This document shows positions 14,864 through 33,457 of a stretch of DNA of 64,000 nt, piece after piece. The notes beneath the pieces were generated by a model. The model did not search any database, was not told the origin of the DNA, and saw only the letters and a program-made list of their open reading frames with translations. The first letter of the stretch is position 1. Each line of letters begins with the position of its first letter. The position numbers and the translations under genes were made by a program. The DNA is from Candidatus Spongiisociaceae bacterium (GTDB lineage Bacteria; Actinomycetota; Acidimicrobiia; Spongiisociales; Spongiisociaceae), in NCBI GenBank assembly GCA_965219685.1, contig CBDCOH010000002.1, positions 2,464,001-2,528,000 of the forward strand, in the 5' to 3' direction.

Positions 14864-16462
14864 ATGCGCCCCGTATACAGGACCGAGTTGACCCCCCTGT
14901 CCTTCCTCGAGCGCTCCTCGCTCGTGTACCCGGACAAGACGGCGATGGTGGACGGTGACCGGCGGATCACCTACCGGGAGATGGCCGATCAGGCTACCCG
15001 CCTGGCCAACGCCCTGGCAGCCTCCGGGATCGGACCGGGCGACCGGGTGGCCTTCCTCTGCCCGAACATCCCCGAGATGCTGCTGGCCCACTTCGCAGTC
15101 CCGCTGATCGGGGCAGTTCTCGTGGCGGTCAACACCCGCCTGTCCCCCCTGGAGGTCCGCTACATCCTCAGACATTCGGGATGCAAGATGCTGGTCGGGG
15201 AGACGGAGTTGCTGGCGCCCCTCGCCGGGGTGATAGACGATCTCCCGGAACTCCGCGAAGTGGTCTCGGTCGACCGCTCGGGGGCCGGGACCGGATACCC
15301 GACCACGCCGTACCGGCATTTCCTGGCCCGAGGGTCGGATCGTCAACTCCCGTGGACTGTGGACGATGAGGAGCGCACCATCTCGATCAACTACACGTCG
15401 GGAACCACCGGGCGGCCGAAAGGGGTCATGTACACGCACCGCGGGGCCTACCTGAACGCTCTCGGGGAGATCATCCACTCCCGACACTCACCGCGTTCCG
15501 TCTACCTGTGGACGCTTCCCATGTTCCACTGCAACGGCTGGTGCACCACCTGGGGCGTCACGGCGATCGGCGGGACCCACGTATGCCTGCCGCTCATCGA
15601 CCCGGCCGCCATATGGTCGCTCATCGACTCGCAGGGAGTCACCCACTTCAACGCGGCGCCGACCGTACTGATCAGCCTGGTGAACGCGCCCGAAGCGCAC
15701 CCCTTCCCCCGACCGGTGACCATCACCACCGGCGGAGCGCCGCCCAGCCCCACCCTGGTCGAGGCCTTGGAGGAACTCGGGGCGGAGATCGTCCACCTGT
15801 ACGGGCTGACGGAGACCTACGGACCCCACACCGTCTGCGAACTCCAGCCCGGTGTCGAGGACATGCCGGTCACGGAAAGAGCCGCCTTCATGGCTCGCCA
15901 GGGTGTGTCCTACATCATCGCCGACCCCATACGCGTGGTCGATGATGAGATGCAGAACGTCGCGACGGACGCGACCGCCATGGGCGAGGTGGTCATGAGG
16001 GGCAACAACGTGATGAAGGGCTACTTCGAGAGTCCGGAAGCCACCGGCGAGGCCTTCCGGGGCGGTTTCTTCCACTCCGGCGACATCGCCGTATGGCACC
16101 CCGACGGCTACATAGACCTCCGGGACCGCTCGAAGGACATCATCATCTCGGGTGGCGAGAACATATCCACGATCGAAGTCGAGAGGGCGATCGCCAACCA
16201 CCCGGCGGTCCTCGAGTGCGCGGTGGTGGCGGTCCCGCACGAGCGCTGGGGAGAACGTCCCAAGGCCTTCGTGGTCCTCAAGTCCGGCCAGAGCGCAGGG
16301 CCAGGGGAGATCATCGAACATGTGAGAGGGCGCCTGGCCCGCTTCAAGGCGCCGGACTCGGTGGAACTGGTCGAGGCGCTTCCCAAGACCTCGACCGGGA
16401 AGATCCAGAAATTCGTCCTCCGGGACAAGGAGTGGGAGGGCTGGAACCGCCGGATCAACTGA
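14864..16462 (+). CDS. acyl-CoA synthetase (AMP-forming)
   Basis: LTPLSFLER, NYTSGTTGRPKG, LPMFHCNGW and PKTSTGKIQK motifs. Confidence 0.93.
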   Translation: MRPVYRTELTPLSFLERSSLVYPDKTAMVDGDRRITYREMADQATRLANALAASGIGPGDRVAFLCPNIPEMLLAHFAVPLIGAVLVAVNTRLSPLEVRYILRHSGCKMLVGETELLAPLAGVIDDLPELREVVSVDRSGAGTGYPTTPYRHFLARGSDRQLPWTVDDEERTISINYTSGTTGRPKGVMYTHRGAYLNALGEIIHSRHSPRSVYLWTLPMFHCNGWCTTWGVTAIGGTHVCLPLIDPAAIWSLIDSQGVTHFNAAPTVLISLVNAPEAHPFPRPVTITTGGAPPSPTLVEALEELGAEIVHLYGLTETYGPHTVCELQPGVEDMPVTERAAFMARQGVSYIIADPIRVVDDEMQNVATDATAMGEVVMRGNNVMKGYFESPEATGEAFRGGFFHSGDIAVWHPDGYIDLRDRSKDIIISGGENISTIEVERAIANHPAVLECAVVAVPHERWGERPKAFVVLKSGQSAGPGEIIEHVRGRLARFKAPDSVELVEALPKTSTGKIQKFVLRDKEWEGWNRRIN

Positions 16463-16582
16463 GTCGGCACGGGCCCTTGGCGCTGATCCCCCCTCAGCAC
16501 CCATCCGATCCACAATCGCAACGGGCGCTCCCCGCCGTTGTTCCTATCTTGGCGATGCACGCCGTGGATAGCGATCGGGCGG

Positions 16583-16632
16583 AAAACGACAAACCCCGAG
16601 TGAGCCTCTCAGCCCTCTCGGGGTTGCCGTTC
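16583..16632 (-). terminator. intrinsic terminator-like hairpin of the ncRNA candidate
   Basis: AACCCCGAG-AGGGCT-GAGA-GGCTCA-CTCGGGGTT followed by TGTCGTTTT. Confidence 0.7.
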
Positions 16633-17008
16633 GTCTCGCCCGCACCGCTGCCTGAGCACCGGTCCGGCCAAGCCGTCGGAAGCACAGCCCTGAAGCTCGC
16701 TCCCTCCGCCACTCGTCGGCCTGTGGCAGCGCTACCACCTGCTTCCGGGTTGCGGTCTCCGTCGGGAACCGGAGTCCCCGCCGGAAGTGCGTTCCCCTCC
16801 TGGATGCATCGCTGCAACCGCTCAGGTCCCGCCGGGTCCTTCTCGTTCGGCGACCGGAGCCGCTTCCTGATCCGAGCCCTTGCACCCCGCCGAGAGACAT
16901 CGCTGCCGCTCCGCAGAGCGGACCTTTCCTGACTCAACGGCCCGGGTACCGGAGCACCCGTACCACTGATCCTGGTCCGGTCGCCGGTCGGGTTTCCCCT
17001 ACCGGTAT
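16583..17008 (-). ncRNA. candidate large structured non-coding RNA (~430 nt), family not recognised
   Basis: Bounded by a promoter and a terminator. It contains four c(UNCG)g and three GNRA tetraloop hairpins plus long-range helices, and has no credible ORF. Confidence 0.72.
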
Positions 17009-17014
17009 GTAGGA

Positions 17015-17043
17015 AAAGTACGCCCTTCGGGGACGGATAGCAA
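17015..17043 (-). promoter_or_regulatory. sigma-A promoter driving the ncRNA candidate
   Basis: TTGCTA (17043-17038)-17 nt-TACTTT (17020-17015). Confidence 0.7.
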
Positions 17044-17164
17044 GGCTAGGGACCCCAAATATTTCGCGGCTCACCGATTCTTTTCGCGATTGTGGAACGT
17101 CGGCCCGATGCGACAGTTCGCGGAACCCGTCTTTCGGGATAAGCCGCAAGGGAGCACTGGCTTC

Positions 17165-17186
17165 TGTCACGAGTGACCCGTATAGT
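17165..17186 (+). promoter_or_regulatory. RecA-NDp/PafBC-type DNA-damage promoter
   Basis: TGTCAC-N10-TATAGT, ending 7 nt before ATG 17194. Confidence 0.65.
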
Positions 17187-17193
17187 TACAGCC

Positions 17194-18042
17194 ATGTCAT
17201 TAGCCACCAGGACCGATCAGTTACTCGACCGAACTCGAGCGGAGGCCTGCGGCCACGCCGTTGGCGAGACTACCCCTGAACCGAGACCCTCGACACTCGA
17301 GACCCTGTCACCGAGCCGTGCCGCCGATTTCAAGCAATGCCCGCGACTGTTCCGCTTCCGCAGCATCGACCGCATTCCGGAGACCCCGTCCACGTACCAG
17401 GCGCGGGGAACCGCGGCGCATCTGGCTCTCGAGCGATTGTTCGACCTTCCAGCAGCGCAACGTACCGCCGGCCGCCTGTTCGACCTGTTTCGAGAAGCCT
17501 GGACGAGCCTTCGCACGGAGACCGAGTACTCGGGACTGTTCGCGACCCTGGAGGAGGAGCGGGCCTGGGGTATCGAGAGCCTGGGGGTGATCGCCAACTA
17601 CCTGACCCTCGAGGACCCGGTATCGATCAGCCCGCTGGACAGCGAACTCGAGATGTCGGAAGAGGTCGGCGACATAATCATCCGCGGGATCCTCGACCGC
17701 CTAGACGAGCGGCCGGACGGCCACCTCGTGATAACCGACTACAAGACCGGCTCCGCTCCCCCCGAACGCTACGCTCTGACGGCTTTCTTCGCTCTCAAGA
17801 TCTACGCCTTGCTGGTCAGGAGCCGGTTCGGAAGGACGCCGGCGGAGATCCGCCTCATGTACCTCGGCAACTCCACGGTCTACTCGATCCCGGTCAGCGA
17901 CCGGATGCTGGACGGTATGGAACGGCAAATCCTGGCTCTGGCCACAGCGATCAGGCGCGCCATCTCCCGGTACGACTTCCCCCCCAGACCATCGGTCCTG
18001 TGCGGTTGGTGCTCGTTCCAGGACATCTGCCCGGCGTGGTGA
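17194..18042 (+). CDS. RecB-family (Cas4-like) PD-(D/E)XK exonuclease with 4-Cys Fe-S staple
   Basis: LSPSRAADFKQCP, RGILDRLD, ITDYKTG and CGWCSFQDICP motifs; start moved to 17194 on promoter geometry. Confidence 0.9.
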   Translation: MSLATRTDQLLDRTRAEACGHAVGETTPEPRPSTLETLSPSRAADFKQCPRLFRFRSIDRIPETPSTYQARGTAAHLALERLFDLPAAQRTAGRLFDLFREAWTSLRTETEYSGLFATLEEERAWGIESLGVIANYLTLEDPVSISPLDSELEMSEEVGDIIIRGILDRLDERPDGHLVITDYKTGSAPPERYALTAFFALKIYALLVRSRFGRTPAEIRLMYLGNSTVYSIPVSDRMLDGMERQILALATAIRRAISRYDFPPRPSVLCGWCSFQDICPAW

Positions 18043-18156
18043 ATGGTGAGTGGTGAATAGTGAATGGAAAGGTATTCTAGCGTACTAAATCGTTACTATA
18101 AGATCTTATTAGGCGTCCACCACACCAGCTCACCACTCACCACTCACCACTCACCA
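18037..18156. repeat. inverted pair of heptamer tracts (GGTGAAT-type / TCACCAC) flanking an AT-rich core between convergent genes
   Basis: G-rich units at 18037-18067, AT-rich core at 18068-18112, TCACCAC units at 18130-18156. Confidence 0.85.
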
Positions 18157-18157
18157 G

Positions 18158-19456
18158 CTAGGGGTATACGCCACGGACCAGCTTGGCGTCCGCCACCCGT
18201 TTGATGCCCTTCATAAGAGCCGCGGTTCGTAGGTCGACCTTGTGTCTGATGCTCACCTCGAGCACCTCTTCGAAAGCCCGGATCATGATCTCCCGCAGCC
18301 TGCTCACGATCTCGTTCTCGGACCAGAAGTAGTTCTGGAGGTCCTGGACCCACTCGAAGTAGGAGACCGTCACTCCGCCGGCGTTGCAGAGCACATCGGG
18401 CACCACCAGCACACCTTCGTCCTGCAGCGCCTGGTCTGCCTCCAGGGTGGTGGGGTTGTTGGCGCCTTCGAGGATCAGCTTCGCCCTGATCCCGCCCACG
18501 TTGGCGCCCGTGATGACGCTACCGACCGCCGCAGGGATGAGCACGTCGCATTCCAGAGCGAAGAGCTCATCGTGGGTGATGGGATCGGCGCCCGCAAACC
18601 CCGCCACGCCTCCGGTCCGGTCGACATGGCGGGCGAGACGGCCCACTTCCAGACCGTTGCCGTTGTGGATGGCGCCGCTCAGGTCTTCCACCGCGATCAC
18701 TCGGCAGCCCAACTCCGCCGCTGCGATCGCCGCGTAGCGGCCTACGTTCCCGAATCCCTGGATGACCACTCGCGCCCCATCGACCGAGACACCGCACCGG
18801 AGAGCCGCTGACGGGAGCAGGCTGATGATGCCCCGGCCGGTGGCCTCCCGGCGAGCCACCGAGCCGCCGAGCGCGGGGGGCTTCCCGGTCACGACCGCGG
18901 GGACCGCATATCCCTGGTTCTGGCTGTAGGTGTCCATGATCCATGCCATGACCTGCTCGTCGGTTCCCAGGTCGGGGGCCGGGATGTCTTTCTGGGGTCC
19001 GATCATGTCGATCACCTCGGCGGTGTAGCGCCTCGTGACCCGTTGCAGCTCCGTCCTCGACAACTCGTGGGGATTGATCCTCACCCCGCCCTTGGCGCCA
19101 CCGAACGGGAGCCCGACCAGCGCGCACTTCCATGTCATGAGCATTGCCAGCGCGGCCACCTCGCCAAGATTCACATCGGGCGCGTACCTGATCCCACCCT
19201 TGGTGGGTCCCATGGTGAGCACGTGCTGGACCCTGTATCCGAACGCGGTCCGAACCTTCGAGTACTCGTCGGTGCGGTAGGGAAAGGTAACGACCAGCGA
19301 CCGCTGCGGCCTGGAGAGCCTCTCCCGGACGTTGTCGTCGAGATTCATCAGCTCTGCGACCTTCTCGAACTGGGCGGCCGCCTCCCGATACATCGCGGAG
19401 TCCCACTCCATCTCGTCGGTGATCGCGGCGTCATGTCCGGGGCCGGCGAGCGTCAC
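18158..19456 (-). CDS. gdhA: Glu/Leu/Phe/Val dehydrogenase (glutamate dehydrogenase)
   Basis: GPTKGGIRY, GGAKGG, DIPAPD, QGFGNVG and NAGGVTVSYFEWVQ motifs. Confidence 0.93.
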   Translation of the reverse strand: MTLAGPGHDAAITDEMEWDSAMYREAAAQFEKVAELMNLDDNVRERLSRPQRSLVVTFPYRTDEYSKVRTAFGYRVQHVLTMGPTKGGIRYAPDVNLGEVAALAMLMTWKCALVGLPFGGAKGGVRINPHELSRTELQRVTRRYTAEVIDMIGPQKDIPAPDLGTDEQVMAWIMDTYSQNQGYAVPAVVTGKPPALGGSVARREATGRGIISLLPSAALRCGVSVDGARVVIQGFGNVGRYAAIAAAELGCRVIAVEDLSGAIHNGNGLEVGRLARHVDRTGGVAGFAGADPITHDELFALECDVLIPAAVGSVITGANVGGIRAKLILEGANNPTTLEADQALQDEGVLVVPDVLCNAGGVTVSYFEWVQDLQNYFWSENEIVSRLREIMIRAFEEVLEVSIRHKVDLRTAALMKGIKRVADAKLVRGVYP

Positions 19457-20772
19457 CTGTCGGGCCCTCCCTCATCCGCCCGACCTGGACGCGCGCCCGG
19501 AGCCGCTGCCGTGACATCCGTCCGGACCCAACGCACCACGAACAATCCCGAGCGGGGCTTGGGGGTGAACCACGTCGACTTGGGCGGCATCAGGCGACCC
19601 GCGTCGGCAACCCCCATGACATCTTCGATCTGGGCGGGATGCATGCTGAAACCCACACCACCAGGATACGCCGCCACGGAACGTTCGAGGCGCTCGGGCG
19701 AGTCCCCGCCTACCACGTAGGACAGGCGTGGGTCCTCGTAGGAGGGCACGCCGAAGACCGGCCCCAGGACCCGCTGGTGGAGCAGGCTCACATCCAGGCT
19801 CTCGACGGGATCCTCGGAGCGTTCGCCCCGGAAGGACAGCCGGTACCACACACCATCCAGCAGCATCACCAGGTCGCCTCTGGTCCTCGGCAGGTATTCG
19901 AGCCCACCGGCAGGGCCGAGTTCGGTCGCTTCCCAGTCGGACCCCAGCGATCTGGTCACCTGCTCGGCCGAAGGGACCTGATCCAGTCTGACCATCCGGT
20001 TGTACTCGAGGGCGTTCAAGTGATCGGCCGGGAACAGTATCGCCAGGAACCATCCGGGACCCACACCCGGCATCGATGCGGCGGCCACCCGGTGGTGACC
20101 GTCTGTGATGTACATGGCGCCGATCCGCTCGGTGGCCTCCCGGATCTCGACGAGATCCTCGGGGCCGTCCACCACCCAGAGCCTCTGCCTCACCCCGTCG
20201 ATTCCCGTGAAGTCTCTGATGGGAAGCCTCAAGGCGAGGCGCTCCATGAGCCGCCGCTGGTCTCGGTCCGCCTGGTATGCCAGCGCGACCGGGCTGGAGG
20301 CCAGCCGCGCGGCCCGCGAGAATGCGGCGAGATCCGCGACACGATCGCCGATGGTTCCTTCGTGTCCGATCACCCTTCCCTCGGCTACGCACGAGACCGG
20401 CACCCCACCCACGATCCCCAACTGGCGGTGCCCACCGGCGTCGAGTTGATACAGCAGGAACCCCTTGGTCGGCAGGGTCTCGAACAACCCCCTCTCCATC
20501 ATCCCCGCGAAGTGATCGGCGGCTCTCATCGCTACCTCGGACCTGGACGGCGCGGGCTCGGGAAAGTCCCTCACTGAGAGGGTGATGTTCACGAAGGAGT
20601 CAGGACGCTCGGCCGCGAACCGGTACCGTCCGGCCGGTGGTATCGCATCGTATTGGGGCGCCACGATGTCGGATGCCCGGTCGGCCCGGGCTACCAAGGC
20701 TTCGATCGGGATGGCGGCTCTCATAGGCACTCCGCGGTGGTCGTCGATTGATGCCGTAAGGATGGCCGACAC
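19453..20772 (-). CDS. DUF1015 family protein
   Basis: PQYD, YITDGHHR and MPPKSTWFTPKPRSGL motifs. Confidence 0.88.
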   Translation of the reverse strand: MSAILTASIDDHRGVPMRAAIPIEALVARADRASDIVAPQYDAIPPAGRYRFAAERPDSFVNITLSVRDFPEPAPSRSEVAMRAADHFAGMMERGLFETLPTKGFLLYQLDAGGHRQLGIVGGVPVSCVAEGRVIGHEGTIGDRVADLAAFSRAARLASSPVALAYQADRDQRRLMERLALRLPIRDFTGIDGVRQRLWVVDGPEDLVEIREATERIGAMYITDGHHRVAAASMPGVGPGWFLAILFPADHLNALEYNRMVRLDQVPSAEQVTRSLGSDWEATELGPAGGLEYLPRTRGDLVMLLDGVWYRLSFRGERSEDPVESLDVSLLHQRVLGPVFGVPSYEDPRLSYVVGGDSPERLERSVAAYPGGVGFSMHPAQIEDVMGVADAGRLMPPKSTWFTPKPRSGLFVVRWVRTDVTAAAPGARPGRADEGGPDR

Positions 20773-32236: not shown

Positions 32237-33457
32237 ATGATCTTTGTGGGAGATGACTGGGCTGAGGCGCATCACGATGTGTGTCTGATGGACGAGGCGG
32301 GAACTCGGTTGGCTGGACGGCGGCTGCCGGAGGGCCTGGCGGGGGTGGCCCAGTTGCATGAGATGATCGCCGAGCACACATCGGATCCGGCCGAGGTGGT
32401 GTTAGGCATCGAGACCGATCGGGGCCTCTGGGTCGGTGCTCTGGTCGCAGCGGGCTATCAGGTATATGCGATCAACCCCAAGGCGGTGTCCCGTTACCGG
32501 GATCGGCACAGCATGGGCGGAGCGAAATCAGACCGTGGCGATGCCAAGGTGTTAGCCGATCTGGTACGAACCGACCGTCACAACCATCGTCCCGTGGCCG
32601 GGGACAGCCCAGAAGCGGACGGGATCAAGATCATGGCCAGAGCGCATCAGAACCTGAAATGGGCCCGGGTGCGTCACACCAACCAGATGCGCAACGCCCT
32701 CCGCGAATACTATCCCGCAGCGTTGGAAACGTTCGATGACCTGGCCCATCGCGACGCCCTTGCCGTCCTGGGCAAAGCACCCACCCCCACCCTGGGCACC
32801 CGCCTGACACTGCCCCAGATCAGAGCAGCCCTCCAGAAAGCCGGGAGGCGACGCAACCTCGACAAGGTTGCCCGCCGCATCCAGAAAGGCCTCAGAGGTG
32901 CCCACCTCACCGCACCGGAGCCGGTTGAGAACGCACTCGGGACAACAGTTGCATCACTGGTCAACATCATTGTGGAAACCAACCACCAGATCGAACAGCT
33001 CGAGCAAACCCTCGAGACCCGTTTTAGAGAACACCCGGACGCCGTCATCTACCACTCCCAGCCAGGACTCGGTACCGTGCTCGGCGCCCGGGCGCTCGGT
33101 GAGTTCGGGGACGACCCCCAACGCTACACCAGCGCCAAGTCTCGCAGGAACTACGCCGGCACGTCGCCCATCACCATCGCATCAGGCCGCAAACACGCCG
33201 TCACGGCCCGCCACGTCCGCAACCGGAGACTCTACGACGCCCTCGACCAATGGGCATTCTGCACCCTAACCCGAAGCCCAGGCGCCCGAGCCTTCTACGA
33301 CCAACGACGAGCAGCCGACGACGAACACCACCAAGCCCTCCGAGCCCTCGCCAACCGACTCGTAGGCATCCTCCACGGCTGCCTCAAACACCGAACCCCC
33401 TACAACGAACACACCGCCTGGGCCCACCGAACCGCCCTCGACCGAGCCGCAGCTTGA
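32237..33457 (+). CDS. IS110 family transposase (DEDD RuvC-like recombinase)
   Basis: FVGDDW, GIET, INP, AKSDRGDA, PGLG and AGTSPITIASG motifs; SD AAGGAGG. Confidence 0.96.
   Translation: MIFVGDDWAEAHHDVCLMDEAGTRLAGRRLPEGLAGVAQLHEMIAEHTSDPAEVVLGIETDRGLWVGALVAAGYQVYAINPKAVSRYRDRHSMGGAKSDRGDAKVLADLVRTDRHNHRPVAGDSPEADGIKIMARAHQNLKWARVRHTNQMRNALREYYPAALETFDDLAHRDALAVLGKAPTPTLGTRLTLPQIRAALQKAGRRRNLDKVARRIQKGLRGAHLTAPEPVENALGTTVASLVNIIVETNHQIEQLEQTLETRFREHPDAVIYHSQPGLGTVLGARALGEFGDDPQRYTSAKSRRNYAGTSPITIASGRKHAVTARHVRNRRLYDALDQWAFCTLTRSPGARAFYDQRRAADDEHHQALRALANRLVGILHGCLKHRTPYNEHTAWAHRTALDRAAA

Follow-up and report, generated by a model that had tools for sequence, protein, structure and literature searches.

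What lies at positions 16583 to 17043 of the 64,000-nucleotide (nt) stretch of Candidatus Spongiisociaceae DNA analysed here (the window), between an acyl-CoA synthetase gene and a nuclease gene? The original prediction, made from the letters alone, had read the minus strand there as the gene of an unrecognised RNA of about 430 nt, complete with promoter and terminator, and had suggested either a new large class of non-coding RNA or a relative of the 6S and Ms1 RNAs. The comparative evidence set out below indicates that the element is a stand-alone gene for a structured non-coding RNA, running on the minus strand from about 17008 to 16583 with a predicted length of about 425 nt. Both ends are predictions; the span as such (16583..17008) is supported by strand-specific folding, by a block of conservation, by contigs of an RNA library (X1, see below) and by the lack of any conserved reading frame. 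The notion of a new class survives in that no Rfam 15 family matches, but not as a one-off class of 430-nt molecules, since the window RNA proves to be an enlarged member of a family spread through its order and usually only 150-190 nt long.

A structured RNA on the minus strand

Folding of the region is strongly strand dependent. The minus strand folds with a predicted energy of -219.9 kcal/mol and a z-score of -4.56, and none of 100 dinucleotide shuffles is as stable, whereas the plus strand has a z-score of only -0.97 and is equalled by 17 of 100 shuffles. The assignment to the minus strand in the original prediction is borne out both by these values and by the covariance model described below. 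Folded in consensus with its two closest relatives, the window RNA has 11 hairpins, nearly all of them capped by tetraloops of the GNRA or UNCG type.

An RNA family spread through one order

Relatives were sought at several evolutionary distances. Blastn searches of 41 related genomes found the RNA region in 12, the window's own genome counted. One match is nearly full length at 92% identity and one is partial at 72%; eight other genomes match only at the 3' end, over 40-50 nt around the terminator hairpin, while the last two matches are weak, come from the window's own genus and lie on other short stretches of the RNA. Both flanking genes are found at eight of the 12 loci (own counted) and the nuclease gene alone at a ninth, so that the intergenic region is syntenic. 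Alignment of these relatives keeps four features, namely the terminator hairpin, a GNRA-capped hairpin at the 5' end, a TAnnnT hexamer and two CGCGAAA boxes.

Scanning 185,579 species genomes with the exact pattern of the terminator returned 15 stretches, of which five are labelled Candidatus Spongiisocius or Spongiisociaceae, seven Acidimicrobiia bacterium, two simply 'bacterium' and one Acidobacteriota. The last of these (L028, metagenome-assembled) has no U-tract and no upstream similarity; it was dropped as a chance match and stands outside all alignments. The genome of the window belongs with the Candidatus Spongiisociaceae, which live in association with sponges. After deduplication there were 16 distinct long-form RNAs of 301-433 nt. 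Nine sequences of the sister genus share 82-96% identity. Their conservation rises sharply at the -10 box and stays high as far as the terminator; in the flanks it is much lower, save in the two boxes and where the nuclease gene begins.

In other taxonomic families of the order, the region upstream of the nuclease gene carries the same succession of elements: boxes 20-21 nt apart, TTGACN-N17-TAnnTT, a GNRA hairpin, more hairpins and the same terminator signature. The usual form of the RNA there is 150-190 nt long and has four hairpins in a row: a GNRA-capped hairpin 1 interrupted by a 2x2 internal loop, a GAGA-capped hairpin 2, a UUCG-capped hairpin 3 whose internal loop is rich in purines, and the terminator as hairpin 4. 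The terminator signature, CCCCGAGAGGG ... GCUCNCUCGGGG followed by a U-rich tail, is present in the window RNA as well. With at most one mismatch it occurs in 188 of 251 genomes of the order, in 145 of the 177 high-quality genomes and in 79 of 89 genera; a backwards control pattern gave a single match. Four genomes flagged as unpublished (G028, G039, G196 and G249) are counted only in this tally of 251, in the nuclease tally of 61 genomes given below and in the locus table, and their loci (L057, L065 and L090) were left out of sequence extraction and of the model searches and alignments.

Many genomes carry two to five copies, on one strand and 260-700 nt apart, as at positions 20168, 20431 and 20694 of G068:C24 and at 160765, 161458 and 162151 of G049:C69. 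Whole RNA genes are in some genomes repeated at exact spacing (693 nt in G049). Long forms of 400-550 nt are also seen in other taxonomic families (loci L047, L051 and L058; genomes G049, G029 and G040; and others), where they carry repeated hairpins of their own, for example ACGAGAGGC units. Judged by eye, these seem to be independent expansions.

Covariation of the paired regions

Alignments were made with MAFFT L-INS-i. Gain and loss of entire hairpins between genera left only 54 consensus pairs when the 16 long forms were aligned together, and we therefore relied on the nine sequences of one genus and on a covariance model of the short forms. For 13 short forms from several taxonomic families RNAalifold predicted 42 pairs, 20 of which show double changes. 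The model built from them, with the outer stem of hairpin 1 added, is called R1 and has 159 positions and 47 pairs. In the gathered sequences R1 finds 104 matches at E ≤ 0.01, a figure that includes low-scoring echoes of hairpins on the opposite strand. The minus strand of the window matches the whole model at 16582-16730 with 41.3 bits (E = 8.1e-9 over 226 kb, 1.6e-7 per genome), compared with 15.0 bits on the plus strand, where only a hairpin is matched.

Covariation across the family was assessed in the 72 best R1 matches, which comprise 65 distinct sequences. In this set the share of paired cells is 94.0% (shuffles 73.4%), double changes are seen in 39 of the 47 pairs, where shuffles average 30.4, and the covariation score is 0.510 against 0.193. 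None of 500 shuffles reaches any of the three values, and controls in which the structure was slid along the alignment are 36-57% paired. All helices covary with the exception of the lower stem of the terminator (helix 9), in which three pairs never vary and four vary on one side only. Alignment columns 318-345 form a G-U pair in 62 of 64 sequences. At 90% identity or above, the conserved unpaired positions are only letters of the UUCG loops, one bulged A and one U after the stem, and the family alignment contains no conserved single-stranded run at this level that could act as a seed.

The phyletic distribution was surveyed with R1 in 151 genomes of the class. Matches were obtained in 36, comprising the window's own genome and 35 of the 36 others of its order, and in none of the 114 genomes from other orders. 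Within the range of this search, the survey shows the RNA family to be confined to one order of the Acidimicrobiia. Two or three matches are found in 32 of the 35 other genomes and one in the window's genome. At locus L006 (G011, another genus of the window's taxonomic family) R1 detects a short form at 146-304 with 95.5 bits and, at 1396-1545 with 45.6 bits, the 3' end of a long form; a genome can thus carry both forms at once. In the window's genome only the long form is present.

Modular architecture of the window RNA

The fit to R1 also tells which parts of the window RNA correspond to the usual family form and which are not shared with it. Its 5' hairpin fits consensus positions 1-30 of the model, as a weak match of 8.3 bits, and about 270 nt in the middle have no counterpart in R1. 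The window RNA therefore consists of hairpin 1, about 270 nt of inserted modules and hairpins 2-4.

Hairpin 1 of the consensus fold (17005-16984, CCGG-UA-GGG-GAAA-CCC-GA-CCGG) is the homologue of model hairpin 1; its alignment pair 10-44 is CG in 13 sequences and UA in three. It is followed by module 1 (16969-16883), made up of a UCCG-capped hairpin (16969-16934) and a GCGA-capped hairpin (16920-16883) with the loop motif CAGCGAUG; in the sister genus, helices 5 and 7 correspond to these two hairpins. Module 2 (16863-16802) likewise has a UCCG hairpin (16863-16850) and a GCGA hairpin with CAGCGAUG (16819-16802), while module 3 (16786-16719) pairs a UCCG hairpin (16786-16757) with a GCGC hairpin, UAGCGCUG (16742-16719), a small hairpin at 16755-16745 lying between the two. 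Direct repeats D1 and D2, assigned to module 2, have spacings of 85 and 91 nt, and repeat D3, in module 3, lies 180 nt from module 1; these repeats show the middle of the RNA to be made of three modules of about 90 nt. In each, a hairpin of the UNCG type is joined by one whose loop bears the motif YAGCRAUR. Of the 16 long-form RNAs, 13 have two or three such motifs at intervals of about 85-93 nt, where shuffles lead one to expect 0.00-0.055 per sequence, and the remaining three (L004, L005 and L008) have none. The window copy was enlarged by triplication of a two-hairpin module of about 90 nt.

Downstream of the modules, a UUCA-capped hairpin (16708-16677) and a UCAG-capped hairpin (16672-16635) align to model hairpins 2 and 3. 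The sister-genus counterpart of the latter (helix 17) has three pairs with double changes. The fold is closed by the terminator helix with its GAGA cap, which extends over 16632-16584 in the consensus.

The tetraloops listed in the original prediction are all in place, both the four c(UNCG)g loops (UCCG 16954-16949, UGCG 16916-16911, UCCG 16859-16854 and UCCG 16774-16769) and the three GNRA loops (GAAA 16996-16993, GCGA 16812-16809 and GAGA 16610-16607). For the UGCG loop, however, only the letters stand, since the hairpin that would display it competes with the longer GCGA-capped hairpin at 16920-16883, which the relatives favour. The long-range helices of the original prediction (GGACC/GGTCC, CTTCCGG/CCGGAAG and CCTGAGC/GCTCAGG) gain no support. 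The evidence concerns CCUGAGC/GCUCAGG: the closest relative carries a U to C change in it without compensation, and its 3' partner lies within the local hairpin 16672-16635 that covaries in the sister genus.

Known RNA families and coding potential

Is this one of the RNAs already known? The cmscan search that the original prediction had recommended matched no family to it. With the whole window and gathering scores, Rfam 15 gave nothing on the RNA and only an unrelated Ms_AS-4 match; for the RNA region under permissive settings the best E-value was 1.3, far under any gathering score, and eight related loci gave nothing at E ≤ 0.1. ARAGORN reported no tRNA or transfer-messenger RNA (tmRNA) in 15000-19000. 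The original prediction had seen no tmRNA or RNase P signature in the element, and rightly so, both RNAs being encoded elsewhere in the genome. The 6S model (RF00013) found nothing in the window's genome or in the 151 genomes of the class, with a sensitivity indicated by its recovery of 6S from 4-5 of 14 control genomes; as 6S went undetected in all 151, its absence is not specific to this order. A search of the literature on small or noncoding RNAs of the Acidimicrobiia and Acidimicrobiales found nothing on this RNA. As far as these searches show, the family is new to Rfam 15 and to the literature.

Nor does the region behave as coding sequence. It contains stop-free frames of 147 and 118 amino acids (aa) on the minus strand and of 279 aa on the plus strand, as GC-rich DNA commonly does. 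No reading frame remains open in all relatives, the open one changing between them. Among the nine close relatives 12 of 13 gap runs, 1-2 nt long, are not multiples of three, and variable columns fall almost evenly on the three positions modulo 3 (41/38/40), so there is no three-base periodicity. The two longest open reading frames (ORFs) of the region have no Pfam match. The original prediction had named a conserved coding frame lacking covariation as what would speak against an RNA; when this was looked for, no frame was found to be kept and the family was found to covary.

The Ms_AS-4 match lies elsewhere in the window, at 33058-33139 on the minus strand. It is full length (79.8 bits) and antisense within the ORF of an IS110-family transposase (32237-33457, plus strand; DEDD_Tnp_IS110 and Transposase_20), and probably reflects conserved transposase sequence rather than a separate gene for a small RNA (sRNA).

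Promoter, terminator and upstream boxes

The predicted promoter consists of the -35-like hexamer TTGCTA (17043-17038, minus strand, indexed by hand), a 17-nt spacer and the -10 hexamer TACTTT (17020-17015), from whose positions a start near 17008-17010 is predicted. These are the hexamers and, in effect, the start of the original prediction. A simple consensus scan of 16300-17300 reported no sigma-70-like promoter because TTGCTA and TACTTT fall below its threshold, and support for the promoter is therefore comparative: TAnnnT stands at the homologous place in 16 of 16 family RNAs. At the -35 place the two closest relatives have TTGCCA and TTGCCT, while short forms have TTGACG or TTGACA followed after 17 nt by TAnnTT.

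At the other end, the hairpin CCCCGAGAGGGCUGAGAGGCUCACUCGGGG with its GAGA loop (16623-16594, minus strand) bears the family signature, the sequence of its lower stem being nearly invariant, and leads directly into the U-rich tail UUUGUCGUUUU (16593-16583), as the original prediction had it. A terminator scan flagged the inner stem of this hairpin with the tail GGTTTGTCGT. The sequence thus presents a GC-rich hairpin directly followed by a U-rich tract, the form of an intrinsic terminator, and its signature is unique in the 4.42-Mb genome of the window. A separate GC-rich hairpin, CAACGGCGGGGAGCGCCCGUUG (read on the minus strand), lies at 16524-16545, in the stretch that separates the RNA's end from the synthetase stop codon, and may be the plus-strand terminator of the synthetase gene itself.

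Upstream of the promoter is a direct repeat, with a distal box, CGCGAAAA, at 17088-17081 and a second box, CGCGAAA, at 17068-17062 that starts 20 nt after the start of the first (both on the minus strand). The repeat is conserved across genera and across the families of the order. The boxes are likely to be a transcription-factor site or a promoter-upstream element. A box pair with at most one mismatch per box precedes 50 of the 63 family copies for which enough upstream sequence is available, ending 46-52 nt before the start of the R1 match in 17 copies and lying farther away in 33 (long forms, or boxes of a neighbouring copy); the other 13 have no pair within 650 nt upstream.

The strict pair CGCGAAA-N12-15-CGCGAAA occurs twice in the 4.42-Mb genome, once at the RNA promoter and once at an intergenic site outside the window (C2:2114352-2114398, locus L068:1353-1399). 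The second site has three boxes, CGCGAGAA, CGCGAAAA and CGCGAAAA, at 20-nt spacing, in a gap of about 300 nt between two convergent ORFs. It shows no promoter hexamers at the family spacing, no R1 match and no Rfam match, and may be a second target of the factor presumed to act at the RNA promoter.

Expression

Part of the sequence (share 0.06) is contained in one RNA run, X1, a small metatranscriptome of 7.3 million contig letters. Against 16200-17400 it yielded 11 contigs from several variants; the eight listed have depths of 18-90 and all lie within 16699-16998. The same run gives no cover of the flanks at 16200-16698 and 17020-17400, towards the synthetase and the nuclease gene, respectively. 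That contigs fall on the RNA and not on its flanks argues against DNA carry-over and for a very abundant RNA. The RNA is apparently highly abundant, an estimate that draws on the contigs of a single study. The 3' quarter of the RNA (16583-16698) is likewise without cover in X1, from which we draw no conclusion. Near-identical sequence also occurs in X2-X5, whose kind is unknown and which may be the source sample; they are not counted as independent support.

Genomic neighbourhood

The RNA gene stands between two plus-strand genes. On its 3' side is the acyl-CoA synthetase gene, encoding an AMP-binding enzyme (14864..16462), which is convergent, so that, as had been stated originally, there is no downstream gene for the RNA to regulate. 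On its 5' side is a divergent gene for a PD-(D/E)XK nuclease of Cas4- or AddB-like type (17173..18042), which matches PF12705 with 126.6 bits and a cas4 model with 36.1 bits, under the cut-off of 65. In alignments its true start is probably the in-frame ATG at 17194 rather than the listed GTG at 17173. The -10-like sequence TATAGT lies 6-7 nt upstream of this ATG and the sister genus has the same arrangement, TATGAT and then ATG; a box so close to the start codon would suggest a leaderless nuclease mRNA, as far as an alignment can indicate it.

The back-to-back arrangement with the nuclease gene, pointed out in the original prediction, is genuine and of long standing. In 24 of the 25 other genomes for which the places of both are known, no more than about 1.6 kb separates the nuclease gene from the nearest RNA copy, which is on its contig; these genomes span seven families of the order (f2, f4, f6, f7, f10, f11 and f12). 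The nuclease gene itself belongs to the core, in single copy: 59 of 61 genomes sampled from the order have it, and a glutamate dehydrogenase gene adjoins it in 19 of 30 loci. Given this general synteny, a functional link between RNA and nuclease remains speculative. In some other loci (L048, L050, L052, L054 and L063 of family f8, L044 and L045) the last RNA copy lies about 85-100 nt upstream of a co-oriented gene for an AMP-binding enzyme whose identity to the window's synthetase is only about 29%. Genes resembling acyl-CoA synthetase genes are accordingly a recurrent second neighbour, with varying orientation.

Mode of action and alternative explanations

How might such an RNA work? Taken as a whole, the data are best explained by an abundant structured RNA gene of a new family whose product binds protein in trans, a reading which we think slightly more probable than improbable. 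Transcription would be initiated at a SigA-type promoter, probably with the help of an activator bound to the two CGCGAAA boxes, 20 nt apart and centred about 60 and 80 nt upstream of the predicted start, and would probably stop at the predicted terminator, at the GC-rich hairpin with its U-rich tail. It is reasonably probable, judging by the pattern of conservation, that the RNA acts in trans through its shape, as a multi-site protein-binding RNA. Its tetraloops and one helix are fixed while the other helices covary freely, it has no seed and it grows by modules and gene copies, which together point to shape and, most simply, to protein binding; base pairing with mRNA is probably not its mode of action. 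Repeated modules would multiply the protein-binding sites, and the conserved GNRA loops and the invariant terminator helix could be surfaces for recognition or docking. The minor groove of helices rich in C-G pairs is a frequent docking site of GNRA loops, and docking of this kind could explain why the CCCC/GGGG stem of the terminator is fixed.

As to the protein bound, the leading single candidate would by analogy be RNA polymerase, as for 6S, Ms1 and CoRP, a tentative suggestion that we think more likely to be wrong than right. In its favour, on grounds that lie outside the sequence and that make the original idea a reasonable one, the niche is open, no 6S having been detected in the 151 genomes of the class, and Actinobacteria are reported to use several unrelated polymerase-binding RNAs (see below). 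A fuller version, in which the family is the missing abundant polymerase-associating RNA of the order and a fourth structural class after 6S, Ms1 and CoRP, shaped as a series of hairpins under tetraloops with an invariant terminal helix, its capacity tuned by gene copies (two to five) or, as in the 425-nt window form, by 90-nt modules and its synthesis switched by a factor on the phased CGCGAAA boxes, is more doubtful still. It has been proposed that every bacterium has some abundant RNA associated with RNA polymerase (PMC11077062); if polymerase is the partner, the family would extend that proposal to a deep branch of the phylum by way of a new architecture.

Several points weigh against the explanation as a whole. 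Protein binding is deduced from the conservation pattern. The chain of hairpins is unlike the rod and bubble of 6S or Ms1, and neither multiple copies nor a basic unit of 150 nt resembles the 6S and Ms1 RNAs as described. The fixed terminator stem could be a hidden seed, or could be required for termination or processing, and where, in some taxonomic families, the copies precede a co-oriented acyl-CoA-synthetase-like gene they may have a role in cis. The contigs of X1 show neither strand nor ends nor length, and are from one RNA run. The family-level alignment used for covariation was fitted to the model and is thereby biased towards the structure. In the nine close long forms the signal is modest because the sequences differ little: over 141 pairs, the share of paired cells is 97.6% (shuffles 97.2%, 10 of 500 as high), the covariation score is 0.103 against 0.096 (9 of 500), and the five pairs with double changes are matched by 166 of 500 shuffles. 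Slid controls of this alignment are 34-51% paired, and most of the single changes swap G-C or A-U for G-U and therefore fit the minus strand only.

The most serious competitor, though itself a doubtful one, is a base-pairing regulatory sRNA in paralogous copies, all governed by one factor at the direct repeats and with a seed in the terminator stem or a purine-rich linker. The csRNAs and Qrr are multi-copy sRNAs under a response regulator, and here too there are several copies per genome, each with its own promoter and box pair, as well as an invariant block, CCCCGAGAGGG ... CUCNCUCGGGG, and purine-rich linkers that by eye resemble Shine-Dalgarno sequences. The fixed block, however, is base-paired, and no unpaired run is conserved; conserved tetraloops on freely covarying stems are the signature of RNAs that depend on shape; and growth by whole hairpin modules would be an odd way of altering a regulator that works through a seed. 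Moreover, no Pfam model for Hfq or for CsrA (PF02599) found a match in the genome, which is 96.7% complete, the lack of Hfq counting against base pairing. At the opposite extreme, we give practically no credence to a protein-coding gene or a chance GC-rich fold without function. The long stop-free frames would invite the former, were they not usual in DNA of this composition; the frames differ among relatives and are broken by indels of 1-2 nt, periodicity and Pfam matches are lacking, folding is strand-specific and covariation across the family is strong.

Two further possibilities are suggested by the neighbours. A cofactor, guide or regulator of the PD-(D/E)XK nuclease would account for the linkage over seven taxonomic families, and in the window the boxes do sit between the two divergent starts. 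Yet the nuclease belongs to the single-copy core, its surroundings are conserved in general (glutamate dehydrogenase included), several genomes have another gene in between, with gaps of about 1.4-1.5 kb, and the RNA varies widely in copy number and length while the nuclease does not. We consider such a partnership very unlikely. Slightly more improbable still is a cis-acting leader or attenuator of the acyl-CoA synthetase gene, riboswitch-like and stranded here by an inversion. Those copies that in other families lie about 85-100 nt before a co-oriented AMP-binding-enzyme gene would be in keeping with it, whereas in the window and throughout its own family the downstream gene is convergent. 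Each tandem copy, furthermore, starts from a promoter of its own and ends in a strong terminator, nothing in the sequence points to an alternative anti-terminator pairing, and in X1 the RNA accumulates alone.

Significance and comparison with known systems

Sea, soil and sponges are rich in Acidimicrobiia, most of which are uncultured, and the RNA-based regulation of the class is almost uncharted. Four traits make the new family useful, namely its spread through a whole order, its strong covariation, its apparent high expression and its recognisable promoter module. It can be used for RNA databases and for the annotation of hundreds of metagenome-assembled genomes. Its evolution is unusual: with a terminal helix that is fixed and growth both by tandem copies and by internal modules, it offers a test case for how multi-site RNAs change their capacity. 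The CGCGAAA boxes, for their part, point to a regulator.

In its modular growth the family recalls the sRNAs of the CsrB/RsmZ type, whose length follows the number of hairpin modules and which have paralogues, a 3' terminator, a factor site upstream of the promoter and GGA loops. Length that depends on modules, paralogous copies, a 3' terminator and a candidate factor site upstream are found here too; the loops, in contrast, are GNRA or UNCG and not GGA, and CsrA was not found in the genome. The present family is comparable to the large orphan RNAs raiA, OLE, ROOL and GOLLD in being structured, rich in tetraloops and strongly covarying, and in having come to light through comparative genomics. 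It differs in matching none of their Rfam models, in being confined to one order, in its small basic unit and in its growth by modules and tandem copies.

6S binds the sigma-70/sigma-A holoenzyme and serves as a template for pRNA, and Ms1 binds the core of RNA polymerase. The Actinobacteria are reported to use lineage-specific, abundant polymerase-binding RNAs of very different sizes, namely Ms1 of about 300 nt, scr3559 of about 230 nt and CoRP of 516 nt (PMC9130861; PMC11077062), and further classes have been proposed to exist (PMC11077062). Ms1 is described as a 6S-like RNA with a central bubble and a short hairpin at either end; it measures about 300 nt or, in Streptomyces, about 230 nt, and is located through its neighbourhood, a HAD-IB hydrolase gene and an oxidoreductase gene (PMC9130861). 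The present family shares with Ms1 that both are abundant, lineage-specific, stand-alone structured RNAs of Actinomycetota without detectable 6S; the homologues of Ms1, too, vary greatly in length and sequence between lineages (PMC9130861). It is set apart, on a comparison by description, as a chain of at least four hairpins that is often multi-copy and lies beside nuclease and acyl-CoA synthetase genes. The window RNA has about 425 nt and 11 hairpins and the basic unit 150-190 nt and four hairpins, and neither the HAD-IB hydrolase nor the oxidoreductase gene was found beside the window RNA. With 6S the family has in common an abundant stand-alone sRNA, and the occurrence of two paralogues, 6S-1 and 6S-2, in Bacillus is on record (PMC11077062). 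There is no match to RF00013, however, and the rod with its large central bubble is absent from consensus and single folds alike. The 6S- or Ms1-like resemblance suggested originally is thus not upheld, the structure being a chain of hairpins and the Ms1 neighbourhood being missing.

CoRP of Corynebacterium offers a different kind of parallel. This RNA of 516 nt is restricted to one genus and binds both the core and the holoenzyme of RNA polymerase (PMC11077062), and it thereby shows by example that this phylum can have polymerase-binding RNAs of new classes. Both RNAs are large, abundant, lineage-restricted and structured, and both were missed by homology searches. CoRP lies between tRNA genes, whereas the window has no tRNA gene in 15000-19000, and the host here is a member of the Acidimicrobiia; CoRP was compared by description, and is not described there as multi-copy (PMC11077062). 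Set beside all of these systems, the RNA of the window represents a new family of a known kind of element, the stand-alone structured bacterial sRNA, with an unusual modular architecture.

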